A DNA stretch of 64,000 nt from a virus: IMG/VR virus record IMGVR_UViG_3300021962_007571, positions 19,526 to 83,525 of that record; one strand, 5' to 3'. Position numbers and translations under genes: made by a program. The notes beneath the pieces were generated by a model that was not told the origin of the DNA, did no database searches, and saw nothing but the letters and a program-made list of their open reading frames with translations. Positions 1,946-64,000 of the stretch are shown here, one piece after another (the stretch's first letter is position 1; each line of letters opens with the position of its first letter).

Positions 1946-3613
1946 ATGAAAAATCTGGTAAATAAGATTGAAACGTTAGAAGAGGAAGTTCAGAAAAATG
2001 AAAAGGACTTCGCAAAAAAATTCTTCATTAACGAAATGAAAAAAATAGGAATAGAAAGACTACCCTACTCATATAGTTCCCTTAAAAGATTTATTGACCC
2101 TGAAACTATGGATGTTCACTATAACAAACATTATAAAGGGTATGTCGAAAAATTAAATTTAGCCTTAGATAAGAAAAAATTTGGTGATTTAGATTTAGAA
2201 CAAATTGTTAAAACTATTAGTAGATTTAATAAAACTGTTAGAGATAATGCGGGTGGTGCTTACAATCACGCTTTATTTTGGAAAATGTTGTCACCAAAAA
2301 CTCAAAAACCAAAAGGTATGATTTTAAAACGTGTTGAAAAAGAATACGGTACCTTTGGTAATTTTAAAAAGAAGTTTGAGGAAATTGCTAAAGAAAGATT
2401 TGGTTCTGGTTGGGTTTGGTTAGTAGTAACAAAAACTAATAATCTAAAAATAATGTCCACCCCAAATCAAGACAATCCTTTGATGAACGATGTTAAAAAT
2501 GGTGGATATCCAATATTAGGATTAGATTTATGGGAACACGCATATTATCTAAAATATCGTAATAAAAGAGACGAATACATTAAAAACTTTTGGGATGCGG
2601 TTAATTGGGATTTTGTAGAAAAATTATACAAAATGAAAATTGAAACAAGAATTGATGAGGATATTGTGATGCAACAACTTATGAACGCTTCCAATAAAGA
2701 CATCATCACAGAACAAGAAGCTAAGTCTCAAAGTTGTTCTCACGGTGAAGAAATAAAATTTAAACAATTACTATTTCCCTCTTCAGATTTAAAACAAAAA
2801 ACAACCCTCTATTCAAGATTCAAACAAGACTATGTTAGAGGATGGATGGATATACTTAAAAAATCGTATCCTGAAAATTGGAAAGAAAAAAATTCTTTAT
2901 TTGTTGGTCACGAATCAGGTTTATACAATAAAGAAAACGTTAGGTCGTTACTAATGAACTTAACTTCATCTTATTCGGCATTCTGTATTATTCATAAGGA
3001 TGTTAATCAATATTTAGTCCAAAATAATCAATCACCAATAGAATACACAAACGACCCAAAACACAATTTGTCTGAATTAAGAAGATTTTTCTCAGTTTTA
3101 GATGGTATTCGTTCGATTATTTTTAATAGAGAAAATCAATCAAATACTTTAAAACAAATTGGAGGAGTTCTTAAAAAAACAGATTGTCTTGGTAAAAGAA
3201 ATGAGGACGCCGCTTGTAAAATAATTAATCAAAATTTAGGTGATGGTTCTTGTAAGATAGAATCAGGTGCGGGACATTCAAATGATATGTTATCAGGTAT
3301 TGACGCAACATTAAAATTAGAAGGTAATAATTTAACCGCTCAAATAAAACCTTACAAAACAATTGTGGTTTCTGATAATTTTGTAGCAATACAAGGGTCC
3401 TCAAGTACTCAAGAATATAAAAAGGTTGATACTATCATTTTTGTTAATGTAAAATCACTATCTGTTAAAATATTCAAAACTAATAATATTAAAATTGAAA
3501 AGGGTAACTTTTTAATTCCAAAAGAAAATGAAATTATGTCTATTGTTGGAACAGGAGATATTGAACTAATTGATTGTAACAAATATTTATCAGAAAACGC
3601 AATATGGGAATAA
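1946..3613 (+). CDS. sod: Mn/Fe superoxide dismutase fused to a long C-terminal region containing a PD-(D/E)xK-like nuclease motif
   Basis: LPYSY..L, HYNKH, NHALFW, FGSGWVWL, NQDNP, DLWEHAYY in aa ~36-228; C-terminal GKRNE...GIDA...AQIK. Confidence 0.9.
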   Translation: MKNLVNKIETLEEEVQKNEKDFAKKFFINEMKKIGIERLPYSYSSLKRFIDPETMDVHYNKHYKGYVEKLNLALDKKKFGDLDLEQIVKTISRFNKTVRDNAGGAYNHALFWKMLSPKTQKPKGMILKRVEKEYGTFGNFKKKFEEIAKERFGSGWVWLVVTKTNNLKIMSTPNQDNPLMNDVKNGGYPILGLDLWEHAYYLKYRNKRDEYIKNFWDAVNWDFVEKLYKMKIETRIDEDIVMQQLMNASNKDIITEQEAKSQSCSHGEEIKFKQLLFPSSDLKQKTTLYSRFKQDYVRGWMDILKKSYPENWKEKNSLFVGHESGLYNKENVRSLLMNLTSSYSAFCIIHKDVNQYLVQNNQSPIEYTNDPKHNLSELRRFFSVLDGIRSIIFNRENQSNTLKQIGGVLKKTDCLGKRNEDAACKIINQNLGDGSCKIESGAGHSNDMLSGIDATLKLEGNNLTAQIKPYKTIVVSDNFVAIQGSSSTQEYKKVDTIIFVNVKSLSVKIFKTNNIKIEKGNFLIPKENEIMSIVGTGDIELIDCNKYLSENAIWE

Positions 3614-4716
3614 TATCAGAACCACACAGGTCAAAATTATACACAAGAGTTAAACATCTTTTAGGTGCACCGATAAGAAGTGTCGAATTAGAAGATGAAA
3701 TGTTAGACTCGTTATTAGAATTAGCAATTGGAGATTATTCACAATATATCCAAGATTGGTTAATTGAATCTCAATGGTCGGCATTACAAAATTTAAATTT
3801 AGATGAACAATCTTTAGCCAGAGCTTTTGTAACTAGAAGTTTAGACTATGAAACACGTTATAGTTACGCATATTCTAAAATTGTTGGACTACAGGCTGGT
3901 GGTGATTGGGTGTTGAAAAAAGATTTTATTGAACTTAAAAAAGGTCAACAATTGTATGAAATACCTAAAGGTAGAGAAATCAATGAATTACTTTGGTTTA
4001 CACCTGCTGAGTTAACAAATATTTTATTTGACCCTTGGTCTTTTGGGGCTATGGGTGGACCTGGACTTGGAGGTCCTGGCGGATACTCTCAATTAGGTTA
4101 TAGTGGTTCTTATTTCTTAATGCCTGCGTTTGATATGTTGTTAAGAATGCAAGAAATTAACATACAGAGAAGAATTATTTCTTCAGAATTAACATATAGA
4201 ATCACCGCGTTACCTGATGGTAAAAAAATGGTTCATTTAATGAACACACCAGGAGGTAAATTTGATTTTGGTAATTCAAATTTTTACAGTGGTAAAGTTT
4301 GGTATTGGTATTATGATGTTGATGGCCCAGATAGAGATAAGTGTTTGGCAGAAAATCCTGATATTATCAAACTACCTTCAGATGTTCCTTTTGATGAAAT
4401 AGCTTGGATTGATTTAAATAACCCCGCCCAACAATGGGTTAGAAGATGGTTTATCGCTCTTTGTAAAGAAACGTTAGGAAGAGTTAGAGGGAAGTATAGT
4501 GGTAACTTAAAAACACCTGATAGTGAATTAACTATGGATTATCAAAGTTTATTAACTGAAGGTAAAGATGAAAAATCTAAGTTAGAAGAAGAACTTAAAC
4601 TAAGGTTAGAGAGAATGAGACCTGAAAAAATGATGGAGAAAGAAGCTTTAACCGCAGAAAATTTAAATAAGGCAATGAAATTTAGAGCAATGCCAAGACA
4701 AATATACGTAATTTAA
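3604..4716 (+). CDS. Neck/head-completion protein (T4 gp13-like)
   Basis: N-terminal LGAPIRSVELEDE and C-terminal WVRRW..ALCKE.LG.VRGKY..L pattern typical of gp13-like proteins. Confidence 0.7.
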   Translation: MGIISEPHRSKLYTRVKHLLGAPIRSVELEDEMLDSLLELAIGDYSQYIQDWLIESQWSALQNLNLDEQSLARAFVTRSLDYETRYSYAYSKIVGLQAGGDWVLKKDFIELKKGQQLYEIPKGREINELLWFTPAELTNILFDPWSFGAMGGPGLGGPGGYSQLGYSGSYFLMPAFDMLLRMQEINIQRRIISSELTYRITALPDGKKMVHLMNTPGGKFDFGNSNFYSGKVWYWYYDVDGPDRDKCLAENPDIIKLPSDVPFDEIAWIDLNNPAQQWVRRWFIALCKETLGRVRGKYSGNLKTPDSELTMDYQSLLTEGKDEKSKLEEELKLRLERMRPEKMMEKEALTAENLNKAMKFRAMPRQIYVI

Positions 4717-5087: not shown

Positions 5088-7800
5088 AATTTATATATTC
5101 TTCCCATCCTTCTTCCGCCAACTCATACATATAATCGGGACTTAATCCTCTTTTATCCCAATACTTTAATTCTTGTTCTGAGATATCCAAAACATCTTCT
5201 TGTAGTCTATCTTGACCTGATGGGTCAAATGGTTTCCCGTTAATCAATTCACATTGTTCTTTGGTAAACAATCCACGTTTTTCAGGGTCTAAAACTAATA
5301 AGTTATCTCTAACCTCATCTTTAAACACAACTAATAAAGGTTCAATACGTTTATTAAACGTTGTAATAGCTCGTGGGACATTATACTCACCTGTTAAGTC
5401 AGGATTATCTTCTAACGCTTTACTGTCTAACATATAACAGTTTAATACTGTTTCTTCACCTTTCTTTTGTACGTCACCGTGAGATGCTCTAATTCCGTTA
5501 TTAACATAAAATATGACATCACCTAAGTTAATATTAAGTCCGTGTTTGATGGCTAATTCCATATGAGCCATTTTACTCATAGACCCACCCGACTTTGTTT
5601 TTTGAGTACTTCTAATTCTATAATCTTCTAAAGACAATTTAACTTTAGCTCTTTGGGCAATTTGTTTTAATGGAATCTTTTGGTCAAATATTTTCTGTAA
5701 GTATTCGTAATACCACTCAACAAATTCTTGACCTTTACCCTCTAACAATAGTTTAACTCCTTTATCCAAAAATGCCTCAATATATAAAGGTAGTTTTTTA
5801 GATTTAATAGTGTTACCCGTTAACTTAACTTTACCTTTGGCATCCATAACCGCATAGTTCTTACGAGCCAAGTTAATACAAGAAGGCCAAGTACCATCAG
5901 TATCTAACGCCATTTCACCTCTCATAAATAAATCGTTGAACTCCGCAACGTCCGCGTCATCGCCAGTATATTCCTTACCCTCTTTAACTTTCCAATTTAA
6001 ACCTTTACCGATATAACGTCTGTTTTCCCATCCTTCAGGTTTAGAGAAGTTCACACCGTCCGTATCCATTACAAGAGGGGTATATCCTCGTTTCATAAAG
6101 AACTTAATCATCATACGAAGATATTGTCTTCCTGTACAAGTAATCTGTTCACCCATATACATATCACCCCAAGCAAATACCTGTGGAGCTGATAACGCAC
6201 CGAACATCGAGTTAATAAAAATCTTAATTGGTAACTGTTTACGGTCATAAGATAACGACTTCTTAGGGTCGGTTTTCTCATATTGACCCGCCAAGTTTTT
6301 ATACAAGATACGAGTATCACGGAAGTACTTCAACATCGCTTTCATACCACCTGTAACGTCACATTCAGGAAATACATCGTGTACCAACTGAATAGAAGGG
6401 TATAGGGAACTAAAGTCAAGTTTCAATACGTTTCTTGAGTAACCTACTTTAAGTAGTCTTGATAAACCACCAACAAAGTCTGTTTTATCTTGTTTTTTAG
6501 GTATTGCTAACTTGAACTTATAAGACCAAGCTAACATTAACATTTTCCATAATGTTGCGGTACCCATAGTTGAAACTCTTTCGTAGGTTGTCGGAATCAT
6601 AGATGCCAACAAAAATGAACCCTGATTAAATTCATCATCGACAACAAGAGTTTCTTCCAAGTCATCGTCAAGATATCTTTCAACTACATTATCACCTGTT
6701 ACTTTAATGTAAGTACCAGGAAATCTAACATCTAAATTATCAAATTCAGGTTTGTCGGCTCTCTTATACTTACCGTTAGTAACGTTTAACCAATACTCTT
6801 CTTTTTTGGCATACATAGGACCAATCTCTAAATGGTCAATATATACACGGTCTTGAGCCTCAGCATCAATATATTGAGTAATGTATTTCAAACCTGCAGA
6901 CTTAATACTTGAATTAATTGCCTGAGCTCTACGTACAGAGTGAATAATATCAATTACGTTGTAACCCCAAATTGATACTTGATTGAATCGTTCTACTTCA
7001 TTCGCAAGTTTCAACATACTCTCTTTTTGAGATATGGTTCTTGCAGGATTCAATGAACGGCAAACCTTTTTAATGTCTAAATTAAGTGCCTTACATCTTT
7101 CAAATATCCAAAACCAGTCGAAGTTAGCTGAATTGTAACCACCAATAATACTTGGTTTTATTTCGTCAATAATGTTAAAAAACTGAACTAACCCCTGTCT
7201 TTCTTGTTCTTCAGTTGCACATTCGATTACCTTTTGATAACCTTTGTTAGTTTTTATTCCAATCATAAAGATACGACCGTCCTTAGGTTCAAGTGCGGTC
7301 GTCTCTAAGTCGAATACAAGTCGAGTAACATCATTGTACTCCTCATATCCTTTAAATAAACGTTTTTCTCTTTGTATTAAGTATTGTTCTACAGGAGGTA
7401 GAATCATAATTAAATCTTTCGCCCTTTCACTCCAAGGGTCTAAACCACCATCTCTAAAGAATTGGATTAGAGTACGGTAACCTTTTAAAGATTTAACCAT
7501 ATACTTAAGACCTTGTTCCATTCTATCATTACCTTTAGTTTCTAACTTTTCGATAACAATACCATATTTGGTCATATTTTCTTTTTGAGCGCCTTTAGAA
7601 TTTTGATAAAAGTTTAAACCTTTCAAATCTCCAACCCACGCAAATGCAATAAAACTGTCTTTTTGGATTACTTTTCCCTGACCAGGGATTTCTTTAATTT
7701 TGTAAATTGAATCTGACACATAATCAAATTCGACCGCCACGATAAATTCTTCGGGGTCATTACCTTCAAGGAAGGATTTAATTTCTTCTTGACTAATCAT
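5086..7800 (-). CDS. polB: Family B DNA polymerase
   Basis: Exonuclease FDLET and GYNSANFD; polymerase LDFSSLYPS, KIFINSMFG, MDTDG, KNYA. Confidence 0.95.
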   Translation of the reverse strand: MISQEEIKSFLEGNDPEEFIVAVEFDYVSDSIYKIKEIPGQGKVIQKDSFIAFAWVGDLKGLNFYQNSKGAQKENMTKYGIVIEKLETKGNDRMEQGLKYMVKSLKGYRTLIQFFRDGGLDPWSERAKDLIMILPPVEQYLIQREKRLFKGYEEYNDVTRLVFDLETTALEPKDGRIFMIGIKTNKGYQKVIECATEEQERQGLVQFFNIIDEIKPSIIGGYNSANFDWFWIFERCKALNLDIKKVCRSLNPARTISQKESMLKLANEVERFNQVSIWGYNVIDIIHSVRRAQAINSSIKSAGLKYITQYIDAEAQDRVYIDHLEIGPMYAKKEEYWLNVTNGKYKRADKPEFDNLDVRFPGTYIKVTGDNVVERYLDDDLEETLVVDDEFNQGSFLLASMIPTTYERVSTMGTATLWKMLMLAWSYKFKLAIPKKQDKTDFVGGLSRLLKVGYSRNVLKLDFSSLYPSIQLVHDVFPECDVTGGMKAMLKYFRDTRILYKNLAGQYEKTDPKKSLSYDRKQLPIKIFINSMFGALSAPQVFAWGDMYMGEQITCTGRQYLRMMIKFFMKRGYTPLVMDTDGVNFSKPEGWENRRYIGKGLNWKVKEGKEYTGDDADVAEFNDLFMRGEMALDTDGTWPSCINLARKNYAVMDAKGKVKLTGNTIKSKKLPLYIEAFLDKGVKLLLEGKGQEFVEWYYEYLQKIFDQKIPLKQIAQRAKVKLSLEDYRIRSTQKTKSGGSMSKMAHMELAIKHGLNINLGDVIFYVNNGIRASHGDVQKKGEETVLNCYMLDSKALEDNPDLTGEYNVPRAITTFNKRIEPLLVVFKDEVRDNLLVLDPEKRGLFTKEQCELINGKPFDPSGQDRLQEDVLDISEQELKYWDKRGLSPDYMYELAEEGWEEYIN

Positions 7801-41774: not shown

Positions 41775-42002
41775 ATGAAAAACTTAGTATTAGTAATCTT
41801 ATCAGTAATCTTCTTATCTTCTTGCGCTACACAAATCCAACTTGCCGACGGACGAAAAGTTTCTAAAAGAGAACACAAAAAAATGTTGGAGAAGGCTTGG
41901 AACGAAAGTTTTGGTAAAATGTCAGACCAAGAAAAAGACTTGATTTACAGTGTTCCTGTTATCGTAGACACTATGACCGTGGTTCCAGATACTATTAAGT
42001 AG
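41775..42002 (+). CDS. Small lipoprotein
   Basis: MKN + hydrophobic stretch + LSS-C lipobox; host-type promoter at 41744-41751. Confidence 0.7.
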   Translation: MKNLVLVILSVIFLSSCATQIQLADGRKVSKREHKKMLEKAWNESFGKMSDQEKDLIYSVPVIVDTMTVVPDTIK

Positions 42003-43467
42003 TTGGTTTTTGGAATATAATGTGTTGACCTGTTTTATACATTTTTCCATTATAACCAGCATCTTTTAATAAAGTGTAAGAACCATCAGTATTAGGAGTT
42101 TTACCAAAAAACCCACCATTAATAAATTTGTCAGTTGCAACTTTAACAGAATCGTTGTTAGTTGTATTAACAATAATTGGTTTGATGACTATTGTAGACG
42201 TTTCAGTTTTTGGAATAACTTTAAGTTTATCCCCAGCAAACCATTCAGTATTTGTTGGGGTGTGTTTAAAGTATTTTAATACAATGTATGTTCCATCAGA
42301 CTCTGGTTTTTTATTAATAATACCATTTTCAATATAGAAATTAGTGGTTTTTTCAGGATTTAACATTTCTAATTTTTTAACGTTACCTGTTAGTTTTGGT
42401 AAATTTTTATTTGAAGGACTGTCAACTTTAGTCGGTTGACCACTATCAACCCCTTTTTTCTTTAAATTACCACAATTATCCAATTCCAATATTTTAATAT
42501 CACCTGTAACACCTCTACCAATAGCGGGAGTACACTGATGAAATAAAACTGTATTACCTTTACTTATTCTAACTTCAGGTCTATCGGAGTGACAATCTGA
42601 AGGGGACAAACATTGTAAACTAATTACAATATCTTTACTTTCATTACCTATTATCGCCTTTGCTTTGGCATCATCCACAACTAATTTTCCACTTGTTCTA
42701 TCACCACCAATTGGAGGATTTTTCTCTCCGTTATTTAAATTTGCCTTACCAATTGAAACTCCATTTAATTTAACATCAAACAATGCAACATCACAATCGT
42801 GGTCCCCTCTACAACTAAATGGTCTACCATCAGTACCTATTGATGGTTGTGAAGATTTATCTTTTTTGTACATAACCTCAACAGTTAGTCCTATAATACA
42901 TTCCTCAGGTGGTTTAATAGCTAAAATTACTTTAACATATCTTTCTTTATCGTAATCAGGATTATTCTTATTACTTTGACCCTTAACATATTTAGTATTA
43001 CCTAATATAAGTTCTGATGGTTCAAATATTGGCATTTCACTAATAACATTTTGAGATTTTAAACTTGAAAAATATTGTTTTAAATAATTTTTCATAGTTT
43101 CGGCTCTTAATCTTGATAACTCTAAAGGTTTTAAAGATTTTTCTTCTGTAAAATCTTCGGACTTACCTGTTGACGGGTATTTTTCTCTATCATAATTTGT
43201 TACTTGAGATTCACTAGCGATAACTTTAACGTAAGTAATTCTACCTTTATTATTTCTTAAAAAATTTGCAGCTCCTTCTAAATCAGACTTTAATTTTTTT
43301 TCATCTTTCTTAGAAAACCCTGAATATTTCCCATCATCAAAAAATGATTGTCCTGACATAGTATATTCATTTTTACCAGCAGGAGTTACTTGTTCAACAA
43401 TATCATATAAAGATAATATTCCTATTCTCTCTTCTTCGGTTATTAATAATTTTCTTCTACAAGACAT
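41995..43467 (-). CDS. Hypothetical protein with an OmpA-C-like domain and Cys-rich middle
   Basis: F..GK...L, LS.LRA..MK.YL; leader LLITEEER..IL.LY. Confidence 0.55.
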   Translation of the reverse strand: MSCRRKLLITEEERIGILSLYDIVEQVTPAGKNEYTMSGQSFFDDGKYSGFSKKDEKKLKSDLEGAANFLRNNKGRITYVKVIASESQVTNYDREKYPSTGKSEDFTEEKSLKPLELSRLRAETMKNYLKQYFSSLKSQNVISEMPIFEPSELILGNTKYVKGQSNKNNPDYDKERYVKVILAIKPPEECIIGLTVEVMYKKDKSSQPSIGTDGRPFSCRGDHDCDVALFDVKLNGVSIGKANLNNGEKNPPIGGDRTSGKLVVDDAKAKAIIGNESKDIVISLQCLSPSDCHSDRPEVRISKGNTVLFHQCTPAIGRGVTGDIKILELDNCGNLKKKGVDSGQPTKVDSPSNKNLPKLTGNVKKLEMLNPEKTTNFYIENGIINKKPESDGTYIVLKYFKHTPTNTEWFAGDKLKVIPKTETSTIVIKPIIVNTTNNDSVKVATDKFINGGFFGKTPNTDGSYTLLKDAGYNGKMYKTGQHIIFQKPTT

Positions 43468-43512
43468 TCAAATAATATTTATTATATAAATAGTTTAAAT
43501 TTTTAAAATACT

Positions 43513-43544
43513 TTTGGCAGATTAAATAATCCGCCGTATATTTG
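43513..43544 (+). promoter_or_regulatory. Bacteroidota-type primary sigma promoter (-33 TTTG / -7 TAnnTTTG)
   Basis: TTTG 43513-16, 20-nt spacer, TATATTTG 43537-44. Confidence 0.75.
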
Positions 43545-43548
43545 TATT

Positions 43549-43661
43549 GTGATTGAGGGAAACGATTTAGATACAAATAAATCAATCATAGTTGTTGAGT
43601 CGAAAGAAGCTCAATTAGGACGGAGAAGGAACGATTTAGATACAACCCTCCGTCTTTTTTT
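43549..43661 (+). ncRNA. Putative small RNA with three hairpins; the outer two display the identical loop AACGAUUUAGAUACAA
   Basis: Promoter directly upstream; stems GTGATTGA/TCAATCAT, TTGAG..GAAA..CTCAA, GACGGAG/CTCCGTC followed by T7. Confidence 0.65.
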
Positions 43662-44073
43662 ATACCCAAATAACTATTTGGTCTTCACCAACTCTAAAAG
43701 GGTTTTCGTAGGATTCTCGGAATACTGTAACAATTAATAATTTCCACCCAACACCACCTTCATTAATGGCTTTGATTGCAATCGCGATTTCTTTTTCAGG
43801 AGATTTAATTACAAAATAATCATTATTTTTAATGTCACCTATAGCGATTAATTCGGCAATTTTTTTACGACCAAGTTCAATAATATATTTAATTTCGGCG
43901 TTAGATATTTCTTTAGTATTATAATCTTCTATATCAGTTCTAGTTCTTCTATCATATGCGTGCGGACTTCTATCAAGTTCAAATGAATAGGTTACCTCAA
44001 TCTTAGTGATTAAGCTACCTATCTTCTTCTCTAACAATAACTGTTCTCTGATTATTTGACGTAGTCTATTCAT
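43660..44073 (-). CDS. Hypothetical protein with a RelE/BECR-like RNase signature and an LRQIIRE leader
   Basis: S.HA.DR..R near the N-terminus and LIVTVF near the C-terminus. Confidence 0.5.
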   Translation of the reverse strand: MNRLRQIIREQLLLEKKIGSLITKIEVTYSFELDRSPHAYDRRTRTDIEDYNTKEISNAEIKYIIELGRKKIAELIAIGDIKNNDYFVIKSPEKEIAIAIKAINEGGVGWKLLIVTVFRESYENPFRVGEDQIVIWV

Positions 44074-44095
44074 ATTATATAAATACCTATAAAAT

Positions 44096-44126
44096 AAAAA
44101 AAGGGGACTAATAATAGTCCCCTTTT
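44096..44126 (-). terminator. Intrinsic terminator after the major capsid gene
   Basis: AAAAGGGGACTA-ataa-TAGTCCCCTTTT. Confidence 0.85.
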
Positions 44127-44146
44127 AGATATCATTAAGATATTGA

Positions 44147-45979
44147 TTATCTTAACTCGTTTAAGTCAAATGTTCTAACTCCATCAACTTGGATACGTCC
44201 GTAGAAACGGTTGTTAACCATTTTCTTAGCGTAACGTGTCATAATACCTTTGATAGGTGTAAAGTTGAATGGATTGTACATTGTAGGAGTTAATTGTAGA
44301 GGTACGTATGGAGCGTAGATGTAACCAGTGTCTAACAATGACGTTCCTTTGTGTCCCATTAACACAGTGTTTGGTGGGAAGTAAGGGTCACGGTAAACTT
44401 GGTATCTACCTGCTAATGTACCAACTCTTTCAATACCCATATTGTATTGGTCTTGCTCAGGAGCCGCGTTAGATACGTGGAAGTATTCTAAATCGTCAAA
44501 GATTGCACTGATTTCAGAAGAAACAACAATCCAGTTAGCACCACCTCTTAAAGTAGATTTGTGGATTTGAGCTGAGATTTGGTTGATTGCCGTAATCAAT
44601 GTTTGGTTCCAATCTTTCTGAGTGTAAGCGTTAGTTTGAGGAACTCTCTTCCATCCGTTGTAATCCCAACGTAATGTCCAAGCCGCACCTTTACGTAAGT
44701 CACGTAAAATTTCACGGTCGATTTCTGCTGCAACTTGTTCAGATAATAAAGCCGTTAATTCAGCTTCAGCATCGATGTTGTGGAAAGCCGCAACGTCTTG
44801 AGCTAACTCAGGAGACCATTGTGCTCTTAATTTTCTTTCAGTTACAGAAACAGTTACTGATTCTAAGTCGAAAGAAACCTCACCAATTTTATCTTCAAAT
44901 TCAAGTTCTTCATATCTTCTGTATACACCGATGAAAGAGTCACCTGAAGCTGCAGTTTCAATAGTAGTACCTGTGTAACCGTCAAGAGAATCTTGACCAC
45001 AAGTAGCACATACTGGACACTGTAAATCAACTTCTAAGTAGATACAACCTGTAGCGTCACAGATGTCATAGAATGAACCACCGTTACCTGCTGGGTTACT
45101 ACCACTTGTTCTTGGGAAGTTAGTTTTAGTGTTTTCACCGTATTGAACGATACCTTTACCATATTGTTGAGTAACAACTCTGAAAGATAAAGAAGTAGCA
45201 TCTTCTACAGTACAAGTACTAGCAGTACTTACTTCTAAACCTGGACCTGCGATAATGTGTAAGTCAGATAAGAATGCTTCGTTATCCATTTCGTTACCAT
45301 CAGGACCGATTAATTTACCAGCACCTGCGTTAGCGAAACCACATAATTTCATAATTACTTTTCTAACGTTTTTACCATCGTATTCGTCAACTGCGTTTAC
45401 TAAGTTACCGTCAGACCAAACTTGTAATGTTGTGTTAGCAGTGATAACTTCAAATCTACCTTTTGAGTAGTCGAATAAACCTGCTGGATTTAATGTAGGT
45501 TCAGAACCTTCATAGAATAAATCGTAAAGGTTTTTAGCATATGCACCTGTACCTTGATAACCTGCGTCAGGATTTCCAGGATAGTTTCCAGGAGAACCGA
45601 TTGGAGCGTAGTGGTCACCAGATGTAGTAGTACCTGTGTTATAACCTTGGATTTTAGGTACGAAGTAGAACAATTTACCGATTGGTAAGTTCATAGCTTG
45701 TACTGATACGATGTCATTCGCTAATAATTTAGAGAATACTCTTCTAACGATAGGGAATACAACTGTTTCGAATGAACCAGATGAATCTGTCGCAGAAGCT
45801 TCGTTGATTAAGAAAGACGCTTGGTTCTCATATAATTGAGCTACGTTTTCTTTTAAATGACCTTTAAGACCCTCTAAGAATCCTAATTTGTCCCATTTGT
45901 TGATTGTGTCTTCTTTAATAACTTTAAGGTGTTTTAAACCAATGTTACCAACAAGACCGCTTTCTAATAATGCACCCAT
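44147..45979 (-). CDS. gp23: Major capsid protein (T4 gp23-like)
   Basis: P.VRR...L.ANDIV.VQ.M..P.G, RKL.A.WS.ELAQD...H.IDAEAEL...LS.....EIDREI, YAPYVPL, G.MTRY. Confidence 0.95.
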   Translation of the reverse strand: MGALLESGLVGNIGLKHLKVIKEDTINKWDKLGFLEGLKGHLKENVAQLYENQASFLINEASATDSSGSFETVVFPIVRRVFSKLLANDIVSVQAMNLPIGKLFYFVPKIQGYNTGTTTSGDHYAPIGSPGNYPGNPDAGYQGTGAYAKNLYDLFYEGSEPTLNPAGLFDYSKGRFEVITANTTLQVWSDGNLVNAVDEYDGKNVRKVIMKLCGFANAGAGKLIGPDGNEMDNEAFLSDLHIIAGPGLEVSTASTCTVEDATSLSFRVVTQQYGKGIVQYGENTKTNFPRTSGSNPAGNGGSFYDICDATGCIYLEVDLQCPVCATCGQDSLDGYTGTTIETAASGDSFIGVYRRYEELEFEDKIGEVSFDLESVTVSVTERKLRAQWSPELAQDVAAFHNIDAEAELTALLSEQVAAEIDREILRDLRKGAAWTLRWDYNGWKRVPQTNAYTQKDWNQTLITAINQISAQIHKSTLRGGANWIVVSSEISAIFDDLEYFHVSNAAPEQDQYNMGIERVGTLAGRYQVYRDPYFPPNTVLMGHKGTSLLDTGYIYAPYVPLQLTPTMYNPFNFTPIKGIMTRYAKKMVNNRFYGRIQVDGVRTFDLNELR

Positions 45980-63838: not shown

Positions 63839-63870
63839 TTTGGATATTTAAAAAACAAATCGTATCTTTG
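63839..63870 (+). promoter_or_regulatory. Bacteroidota-type promoter of the tmRNA
   Basis: TTTG-N20-TATCTTTG. Confidence 0.7.
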
Positions 63871-63889: not shown

Positions 63890-64000
63890 GGGGATGAATG
63901 GAATCGATTGGCATTGTTGCGTATCGGTGGCACGTCGGAACTGAATTAATTCCGTAAAAACTGATTCAAAACTGTAAACGGCAACGTTTTAGACAAAATG
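63890..64000 (+). ncRNA. ssrA: tmRNA, 5' part (truncated by the window end)
   Basis: GGGGATGAATGGAATCGA resembles the tmRNA 5' end; resume-like context TAAAC-GGC opening a tag GNVLDKM... Confidence 0.75.

Follow-up and report, generated by a model that had tools for sequence, protein, structure and literature searches.

The window, meaning the whole 64,000-nt stretch of DNA analyzed here, belongs to a virus record of 83.5 kb to which CheckV assigns a completeness of 26%; one complete relative is 296 kb long. In the ORF list, the T4-type major capsid gene, an ORF of 137 aa, and an ORF of 490 aa are all found on the minus strand. The 192-bp gap between the latter two holds a small RNA (sRNA) gene on the plus strand; it diverges from the 490-aa gene and converges with the 137-aa gene (Table 1). 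No protein antitoxin gene adjoins the 137-aa gene, which has the terminator of the capsid gene upstream of it, and no canonical minus-strand terminator was found between position 43660 and the 490-aa gene. The sequence TATTTATATAAT has exactly two exact copies in the window, and they bracket a cassette made up of the 137-aa gene and the sRNA. Phages with a 490-aa gene that is 40-44% identical lack the entire cassette. The relatives L008-L013 do not have it, and there the order is capsid gene, terminator, a similar box, and 490-aa gene. The boxes may mark recombination borders of an inserted cassette, comparable to the promoter-stem-loop cassettes of T4-type phages.

Table 1. Features in and around the cassette, in window positions
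Feature	Position	Strand	Basis or detail
490-aa ORF	41995-43467	-	ORF list
Second TATTTATATAAT box, before the 490-aa gene	43481..43492	-	The other exact copy
sRNA promoter	43513..43544	+	-33 TTTG at 43513-16; -7 TATATTTG at 43537-44; spacer of 20 nt
Twin-loop sRNA, ~113 nt	43549..43661	+	Start predicted from the -7 box; end at the T-run
Hairpin 1	43549..43589	+	Stem 43549-56 with 43582-89; 25-nt loop holds the motif (43561-76)
Middle hairpin	43594..43615	+	43594-43600 with 43609-43615, seven pairs; 8-nt A-rich loop
Hairpin 3, intrinsic terminator	43617..43661	+	Loop is the 16-mer (43630-45)
137-aa gene (P0066), candidate RegB/RelE-like (BECR-fold) nuclease	43660..44073	-	ORF; >90 homologues
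TATTTATATAAT box directly before the ATG of the 137-aa gene	44074..44085	-	Candidate phage promoter element
Intrinsic terminator of the major capsid gene	44099..44126	-	Upstream border of the cassette
T4-type major capsid gene	44147-45979	-	PF07068 Gp23, E = 3 × 10−72

An initial annotation had proposed that a host-type promoter, TTTG-N20-TATATTTG, drives this RNA, and that promoter is indeed present, as the best promoter-like site within 43300-44300. It is of the Bacteroidota type, with a sigma-70-like TTGGCA-17-TATATT as an alternative reading. The -7 box, TAnnTTTG, is found in all homologues at a constant distance to hairpin 1, unlike the -33 TTTG, which is not conserved among all relatives. 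The transcription start we infer from the -7 box; unmodified host RNA polymerase would transcribe the sRNA from here and stop at the last hairpin and its U-run. At its far end, the window has the 5′ part of a phage tmRNA gene (63890-64000, plus strand; Rfam RF00023, 26 bits, E = 6 × 10−9), covering model positions 1-113 of 374 and cut by the contig end. ARAGORN missed this gene because it is truncated. A host-type promoter, TTTG-N20-TATCTTTG at 63839-63870, precedes the fragment and is of the same type as the sRNA promoter, and since the two share it, synthesis of the sRNA is expected from the start of infection. Lake-water metatranscriptomes contain short pieces of the stretch, as unstranded contigs with cover mostly on the capsid gene; one 106-nt contig (43533-43638, depth 2, run X4) spans most of the sRNA and starts inside the promoter.

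The plus strand of 43546-43662 folds with -26.9 kcal/mol (z = -2.74) into the three hairpins that had been drawn by eye, followed by the T-run, and the opposite strand folds poorly (z = -0.88). Hairpin 1 pairs exactly as first described, with 7 Watson-Crick pairs and one G-U. Hairpin 3 also pairs, with a stem longer than had been noted (43617-29 with 43646-56, that is, 43617-25 with 43648-56 plus 43628-29 with 43646-47), and in the fold the 16-mer is precisely its loop. The middle hairpin, which does not contain the loop motif, had been described as capped by a GAAA tetraloop; its loop is instead 8 nt here and a variable 6-8 nt in relatives (CGAAAGAA, CGAAAAAA, UAAACC), and the whole hairpin is missing in the two-hairpin relatives L113 and L125. 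The 16-mer AACGATTTAGATACAA occurs twice, 69 nt apart on separate hairpins, and no further exact copy exists in the window or elsewhere in the 83.5-kb record. Allowing up to 3 mismatches raises the count to 7 matches, where 2.6 are expected, so the remaining inexact matches look like chance. The RNA ends in a run of seven T (43655-61) that overlaps the stop codon of the convergent 137-aa gene. A coding reading of the plus-strand ORF at 43549-43737 was rejected, as homologues differ in length by 1-5 nt and have compensatory substitutions in the stems.

A covariance model, R1, was built from 24 sequences. It matches 62 related phage loci, equal to 37 distinct sequences, and on the window it finds 43545-43661 with 126 bits (E = 6 × 10−21). 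In the R1 alignment, 95.6% of cells are paired, compared to 32-50% with the partners slid by 1-3 columns, and 23 of 24 pairs have changes on both sides; no such values arose in 500 shuffles. Helix 1 is 97.9% paired with both-side changes in 7 of its 8 pairs, and helices 2 and 3 each have them in 8 of 8. The alignment was fitted to the model, which favors the structure; helices 2 and 3 had, however, emerged earlier from RNAalifold on a plain MAFFT alignment, where 14 of 16 pairs showed compensatory changes. The proposal of conserved loops on stems of differing sequence is thus borne out across the homologues. G-U pairs make up about 90 of the 843 cells, about a tenth of those that are paired, and would read C-A on the opposite strand; this, together with the difference in z between the strands, means that the structure belongs to the plus strand.

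In hairpin 3, conservation of the loop core ACGAUUNAGAUAC is 95% or more among the 37 distinct sequences, and the mean major-base frequency in the stems is 0.70. The consensus loop motif is G-R-A-A-C-G-A-U-U-N-A-G-A-U-A-C-W-A. In the 80 best IMG/VR loci, where the DNA 3′ of the 137-aa gene was read on the opposite strand, the build is a TAnnTTTG box, a hairpin with the loop GGAAACGAUUYAGAUACAA, the middle hairpin, a terminator hairpin with the same loop, and a T-run on the stop codon. An own promoter and an own terminator, both part of the original description, are therefore kept in the homologues. The two loops, said to be identical, are so in this record but not in relatives: the central base is U, C, or A, one RNA may have different bases in its two loops, and the first loop of some relatives reads ACAAUU. 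The number of motif hairpins ranges from 1 to 4, with one in L103 and L107, three in L130, L136, and L173 (2621-2749, plus strand), and four in L139, where two tandem two-hairpin units, each with its own T-run, lie at 6775-6943 on the minus strand. There is one copy per phage record, apart from the two tandem units in one record, and near-identical contigs carry identical copies. In L007, whose 490-aa protein is 77% identical, both promoter boxes are kept and the spacer has diverged, loop 1 has one change, and the middle stem has two one-sided changes that preserve pairing.

The Rfam search agrees with the initial label of an unannotated RNA: no Rfam 15 family overlaps the element, either in the window (E up to 10) or in nine related loci (E up to 0.1). 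A blastn search of the region against 50,697 phage records gave no match, and no paper on such an RNA family was found in the literature. The twin-loop RNA is a real and uncatalogued sRNA gene of large freshwater T4-like phages.

A CRISPR-repeat mimic, that is, an RNA anti-CRISPR, had been suggested because the second copy of the 16-mer ends in ACAAC, and one may also ask if the element is a mere DNA-level repeat or an ordinary terminator with no function as RNA. We regard all of these as highly improbable. Searched against 185,579 species genomes, the 16-mer has single scattered matches with no array among the matches listed, and R1 gave two marginal matches (E = 0.04-0.07) among at least 80 listed 16-mer loci and recognized none of these as a homologue. 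The G-U pairs and the difference in folding energy between the strands argue for a plus-strand RNA over a repeat at the DNA level. Hairpin 3 does act as a terminator, but a plain terminator would neither keep a 16-nt loop invariant nor duplicate that loop upstream.

The neighborhood of the RNA was surveyed from both sides. A scan of IMG/VR for the twin motif, blind to proteins, gave 57 loci, of which one is cut at its end and 56 are informative. The 137-aa gene is present and convergent in 52 of the 56, at 17-22 nt after motif 2, or 75 nt in two loci. Starting instead from the protein, a convergent promoter-to-terminator RNA ends on the stop codon in 80 of its 80 best loci. In L111, L114, L116, L120, L122, L126, and L129 that RNA is not the twin-loop RNA but a second, unrelated class, ~125 nt long, highly conserved, and possibly pseudoknotted, with the same type of promoter and the same junction at the stop codon. 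It follows homologues of 139-151 aa (e.g., L111:2294-2441 and L114:2953-3095, both on the minus strand), starts with GGGUUGAACCGAGAUUACCC, and has a CCGAG that can pair with a downstream CUCGG; it has no Rfam match. None of the close homologues (at least 44% identity) lacks a convergent RNA. The pair is mostly found after the capsid gene, and also in a tRNA cluster (L113 and L125) and elsewhere, and its neighbor on the promoter side changes freely among loci. In L113 it is surrounded by 14 clustered tRNA genes that share the strand of the sRNA, a setting reminiscent of T4, where the tRNA region includes the stable RNAs C and D (annotated in AF158101).

Four loci have the sRNA and not the 137-aa gene. 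A deletion in L147 (~3600-3700) has left only the last ~40 nt of the gene, still abutting an intact sRNA, and the capsid terminator comes directly after. L148 and L168 have a different convergent gene beside the sRNA, and L186 has an HNH ORF. An ORF for an HNH-type endonuclease also adjoins the cassette downstream of the sRNA in L173, as it does in L186, consistent with a hot spot for mobile genes at this site. Persistence of the sRNA in these four loci suggests that it may have a function of its own. The overlap of terminator and stop codon leaves no spacer for recombination, so the linkage could be partly mechanical. Dependence between the two genes is one-sided: the sRNA persists without the gene, and close homologues of the protein never occur without an RNA.

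These observations bear on whether the RNA acts in trans by base pairing, the loops being duplicated seeds for host or phage mRNAs, in the way of sRNAs whose several loops repeat one seed, and the neighboring gene reflecting only a shared terminator at an insertion hot spot. A host-type promoter would give early and strong expression, conserved single-stranded loops are typical of seeds, and the RNA does stand alone in L147, L148, L168, and L186. Even so, we consider a base-pairing sRNA unlikely. The central loop base is U, C, or A and is not the same in both loops of one RNA; a base that is free at this place points to recognition by a protein, or of two half-sites, rather than to one 16-nt duplex. 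Likewise, a loop number from 1 to 4 suits a multivalent protein-binding RNA better than it does a single seed. The best RNAduplex score on either strand of the 64-kb window is -17.3 kcal/mol, within the -15 to -19 obtained with shuffled motifs, and the window has no complement of the 16-mer with 2 or fewer mismatches.

The 137-aa protein belongs to a family of >90 homologues and has no Pfam, PHROG, or PDB sequence match, the PDB having been searched with two profiles. An AlphaFold2 model made with 74 sequences has a pLDDT of 83 and a pTM of 0.73, with helix 2-23, strand 25-29, helix 37-43, helix 58-77, and then four strands. Proteins of the RelE/ParE (BECR) superfamily have a compact α/β fold in which a four-stranded antiparallel sheet carries two packed helices. 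As modeled, the topology of the 137-aa protein fits the RelE/YoeB order with an extra N-terminal helix; the fold of T4 RegB is RelE-like with an extra N-terminal helix (PMC3014915). Foldseek ranks T4 RegB (2hx6) first, at a weak E = 0.088, and many RelE, HigB, YoeB, and ParE chains are among the top rows of the structure comparisons, where unrelated folds tie with them. Z scores by VIA-align are 3.6-4.5 for RelE, HigB, YoeB/ParE, and RegB, again tied by unrelated folds: RelE1 has Z = 4.5 with an rmsd of 3.2 Å over 73 aligned residues, and RegB has Z = 3.6 with 98 aligned. For nucleases of the RelE/RegB type, Z is never above 5.0 and the Foldseek E never below 0.088. ToxN chains are absent from these fold-search results, in which all scores are weak.

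The profile of the family does not align significantly with that of T4 RegB (hhalign E = 0.18). In that best local alignment, H38 and R42 fall on RegB H48 and R52, and H48 is a catalytic residue of RegB (PMC3014915). No residue but H38 is invariant when the wider family is compared, and R42 is conserved in at least 90% of the 74 sequences; the endoribonucleases of the superfamily have His/Arg/Glu catalytic residues. No sequence match to the RelE/ParE superfamily is above the curated threshold, and the protein's own record has no PF14076 match. The sole recurrent weak Pfam match is DUF4258, in 3 of 57 remote relatives with a best E = 0.015; it is also the nearest named Atlas lead (score 0.78), and it has been counted among the toxins of the RelE/ParE superfamily (PMC11980606). 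The protein has 22 basic and 22 acidic residues in what is modeled as a soluble α/β fold, and the family median pI of 6.7 is near neutral, which is unusual for an RNA binder. With fold scores this weak and a RegB profile match that is not significant, we hold a RegB/RelE-like nuclease as the probable, and not an established, identity of the protein.

Remote homologues share an HAxERQxRH motif and have an hhalign probability of 99.5%, and many of them have no such RNA. Often they are one domain of ORFs of 300-1000 aa (L316, L321, L324, L370, and L383), on many marine and freshwater phage contigs. A tblastn search with the 137-aa protein finds a single match, 40% identical, in LR745206, an unannotated phage of 634 kb. 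This homologue (L189:1870-2260) does not have the RNA either. Its convergent neighbor is a protein gene with which it shares a terminator, and by eye the C-terminal end of that protein is like an S1-type RNA-binding domain, which is curious as RegB needs protein S1.

Our tentative reading, which we put a little short of an even chance, is that the twin-loop RNA is an antitoxin-like partner of a RegB/RelE-type nuclease of the phage. The near-constant tail-to-tail position beside the RegB/RelE-like gene suggests that control of this protein, by binding to it, is the probable role of the RNA. Loops that stay fixed on variable stems, a free base at the loop center, 1 to 4 loops, and a one-sided dependence are what is expected of an RNA restraining a harmful protein. 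So too are the absence of a protein antitoxin and the swap to another RNA class in one clade of the protein. In such a mechanism, the sRNA would hold two large loops open on stems of no fixed sequence, and each loop would bind one copy of the protein, keeping it inactive or tuning it in some other way, in the manner of a type III toxin-antitoxin pair. The 137-aa gene, which follows the capsid gene, would be expressed from behind a phage-specific box. What the sequences establish is the RNA gene with its structure, conservation, and linkage to the protein gene; nuclease activity, binding, and inhibition are predicted. The suggestion of a bivalent protein-binding RNA is in this way retained as to valency, given the 1 to 4 loops and the free center base, but not as to the partner, for which the phage's own 137-aa gene, beside it in 52 of 56 loci, is the likeliest.

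One partner suggested at first was a host defence protein, and the RNA proved to be linked to the phage RegB/RelE-like gene instead. The broader form of that idea has the RNA as a sponge or decoy for some host RNA-binding protein (a defence nuclease, or a translation or ribosome-associated factor), with the adjacent phage protein unrelated. One motif displayed multivalently on covarying stems is suited to this, the promoter is early and of host type, and the phage encodes another translation-related part, the tmRNA fragment. The core GAUU-N-AGAUAC also resembles, apart from one extra base, the 790 loop of 16S rRNA, which we take to be GAUUAGAUAC. Mimicry of the 790 loop was kept only as a minor idea, as the match needs a 1-nt gap and the probability of one by chance was estimated at ~0.1. 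A host-protein sponge leaves unexplained why every close homologue of the 137-aa protein keeps a convergent RNA, of another class in one clade, and we think it quite unlikely.

Control in cis is a further reading, in which the sRNA pairs, type I-like, with the 3′ region of the 137-aa mRNA, or convergent transcription interferes. Transcripts of the 137-aa gene would run on across the sRNA gene in antisense, and the 137-aa gene, perhaps together with the 490-aa gene that follows it, would be expressed less. The tail-to-tail overlap is kept throughout, the capsid gene lies on one strand with the 137-aa and 490-aa genes, and no canonical minus-strand terminator is found between 43660 and the 490-aa gene. 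But pairing of this kind needs neither identical loops nor loops conserved across phages with differing stems, and the toxin-like protein is not a small membrane peptide. As the main mechanism, we judge cis-antisense control very unlikely. It may act alongside RNA-protein pairing: because no canonical minus-strand terminator follows the 137-aa gene, antisense effects of the tail-to-tail overlap may add to control by the antitoxin-like RNA.

To our knowledge, only protein antitoxins have been described for nucleases of the RelE/ParE type, and the toxins paired with RNA antitoxins are all ToxN-like, AbiF-like, or AvcD. It is possible, and we hold it with some doubt, that this is the first RNA antidote or regulator of a nuclease of the RegB/RelE class (BECR), in a new, convergent form of RNA-protein toxin-antitoxin system, carried by lytic jumbo phages, in which the second RNA class would have the same role in a sister clade. 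An RNA controlling a RegB/RelE-like enzyme would, if true, widen both the class of RelE/ParE nucleases and that of RNA antitoxins, and it would suggest a specific means by which T4-type phages keep their own mRNA-cutting enzyme in check. Whichever the partner is, there is a well-supported new RNA family with strong covariation and dozens of members. The family is found in abundant freshwater Bacteroidota phages that also carry tmRNA, and it bears on phage takeover of translation. tmRNA rescues ribosomes stalled on mRNAs cut by RelE, and one may speculate that a phage carrying both tmRNA and a RelE-like enzyme would be coherent. The system is small (117 nt and 137 aa) and testable in E. coli or Flavobacterium johnsoniae.

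Among known systems, the type I pairs txpA/RatA and bsrG/SR4 of Bacillus subtilis have antisense RNAs that overlap at the 3′ ends around one terminator hairpin. The toxins are short membrane peptides, and the RNAs act by pairing. The cassette is like them in having convergent genes that overlap at their ends around one terminator hairpin. It differs in that the protein is modeled as a soluble α/β protein of 137 aa, and the conserved parts of the RNA are its loops. The CsrB/RsmZ RNAs also present one short motif in several loops, with free stems and a variable copy number. At 13-17 nt the motif here is far longer, loop 3 of many relatives does not keep GGA (e.g., CAGAAAC in L062), and the presumed partner is an adjacent phage protein rather than CsrA, to which no link was found.

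The type III systems include ToxIN, CptIN, and TenpIN, and also AvcID (PMC5086642, PMC10511110). As in these, the cassette genetically couples a small protein, a probable nuclease, to a non-coding RNA built on repeats of one unit; by analogy the RNA would bind and neutralize the protein, the number of RNA units varies, and the RNA can occur alone while the protein does not. The layout is different. Here the RNA is downstream, convergent, and has its own promoter, whereas the type III RNA is upstream on the same strand before a leaky terminator, and the loop is set on distinct hairpins in place of a tandem pseudoknot repeat. In addition, the modeled protein is more like RegB/RelE than ToxN, and it is a lytic T4-like jumbo phage that carries the pair. 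The early notion of a type III antitoxin mimic would then survive if it is taken to mean a type III-like antitoxin of the phage's own nuclease, with the gene layout departing from it.

For T4 RegB, an "anti-RegB" partner has been postulated and never found (PMC3014915). The sequence similarity between RegB and the present protein is not significant, and the second catalytic histidine of RegB (H68) has no clear counterpart. Unlike the gene here, T4 regB has no neighboring sRNA in the annotated record, and RegB is expressed from an early promoter, whereas the 137-aa gene follows the capsid gene. What the two have in common is that both are proteins of ~140-150 aa in T4-type phages, with, in the model of the one studied here, a RelE/YoeB-like topology and an N-terminal helix, and the twin-loop RNA could be a partner of the kind postulated for T4.
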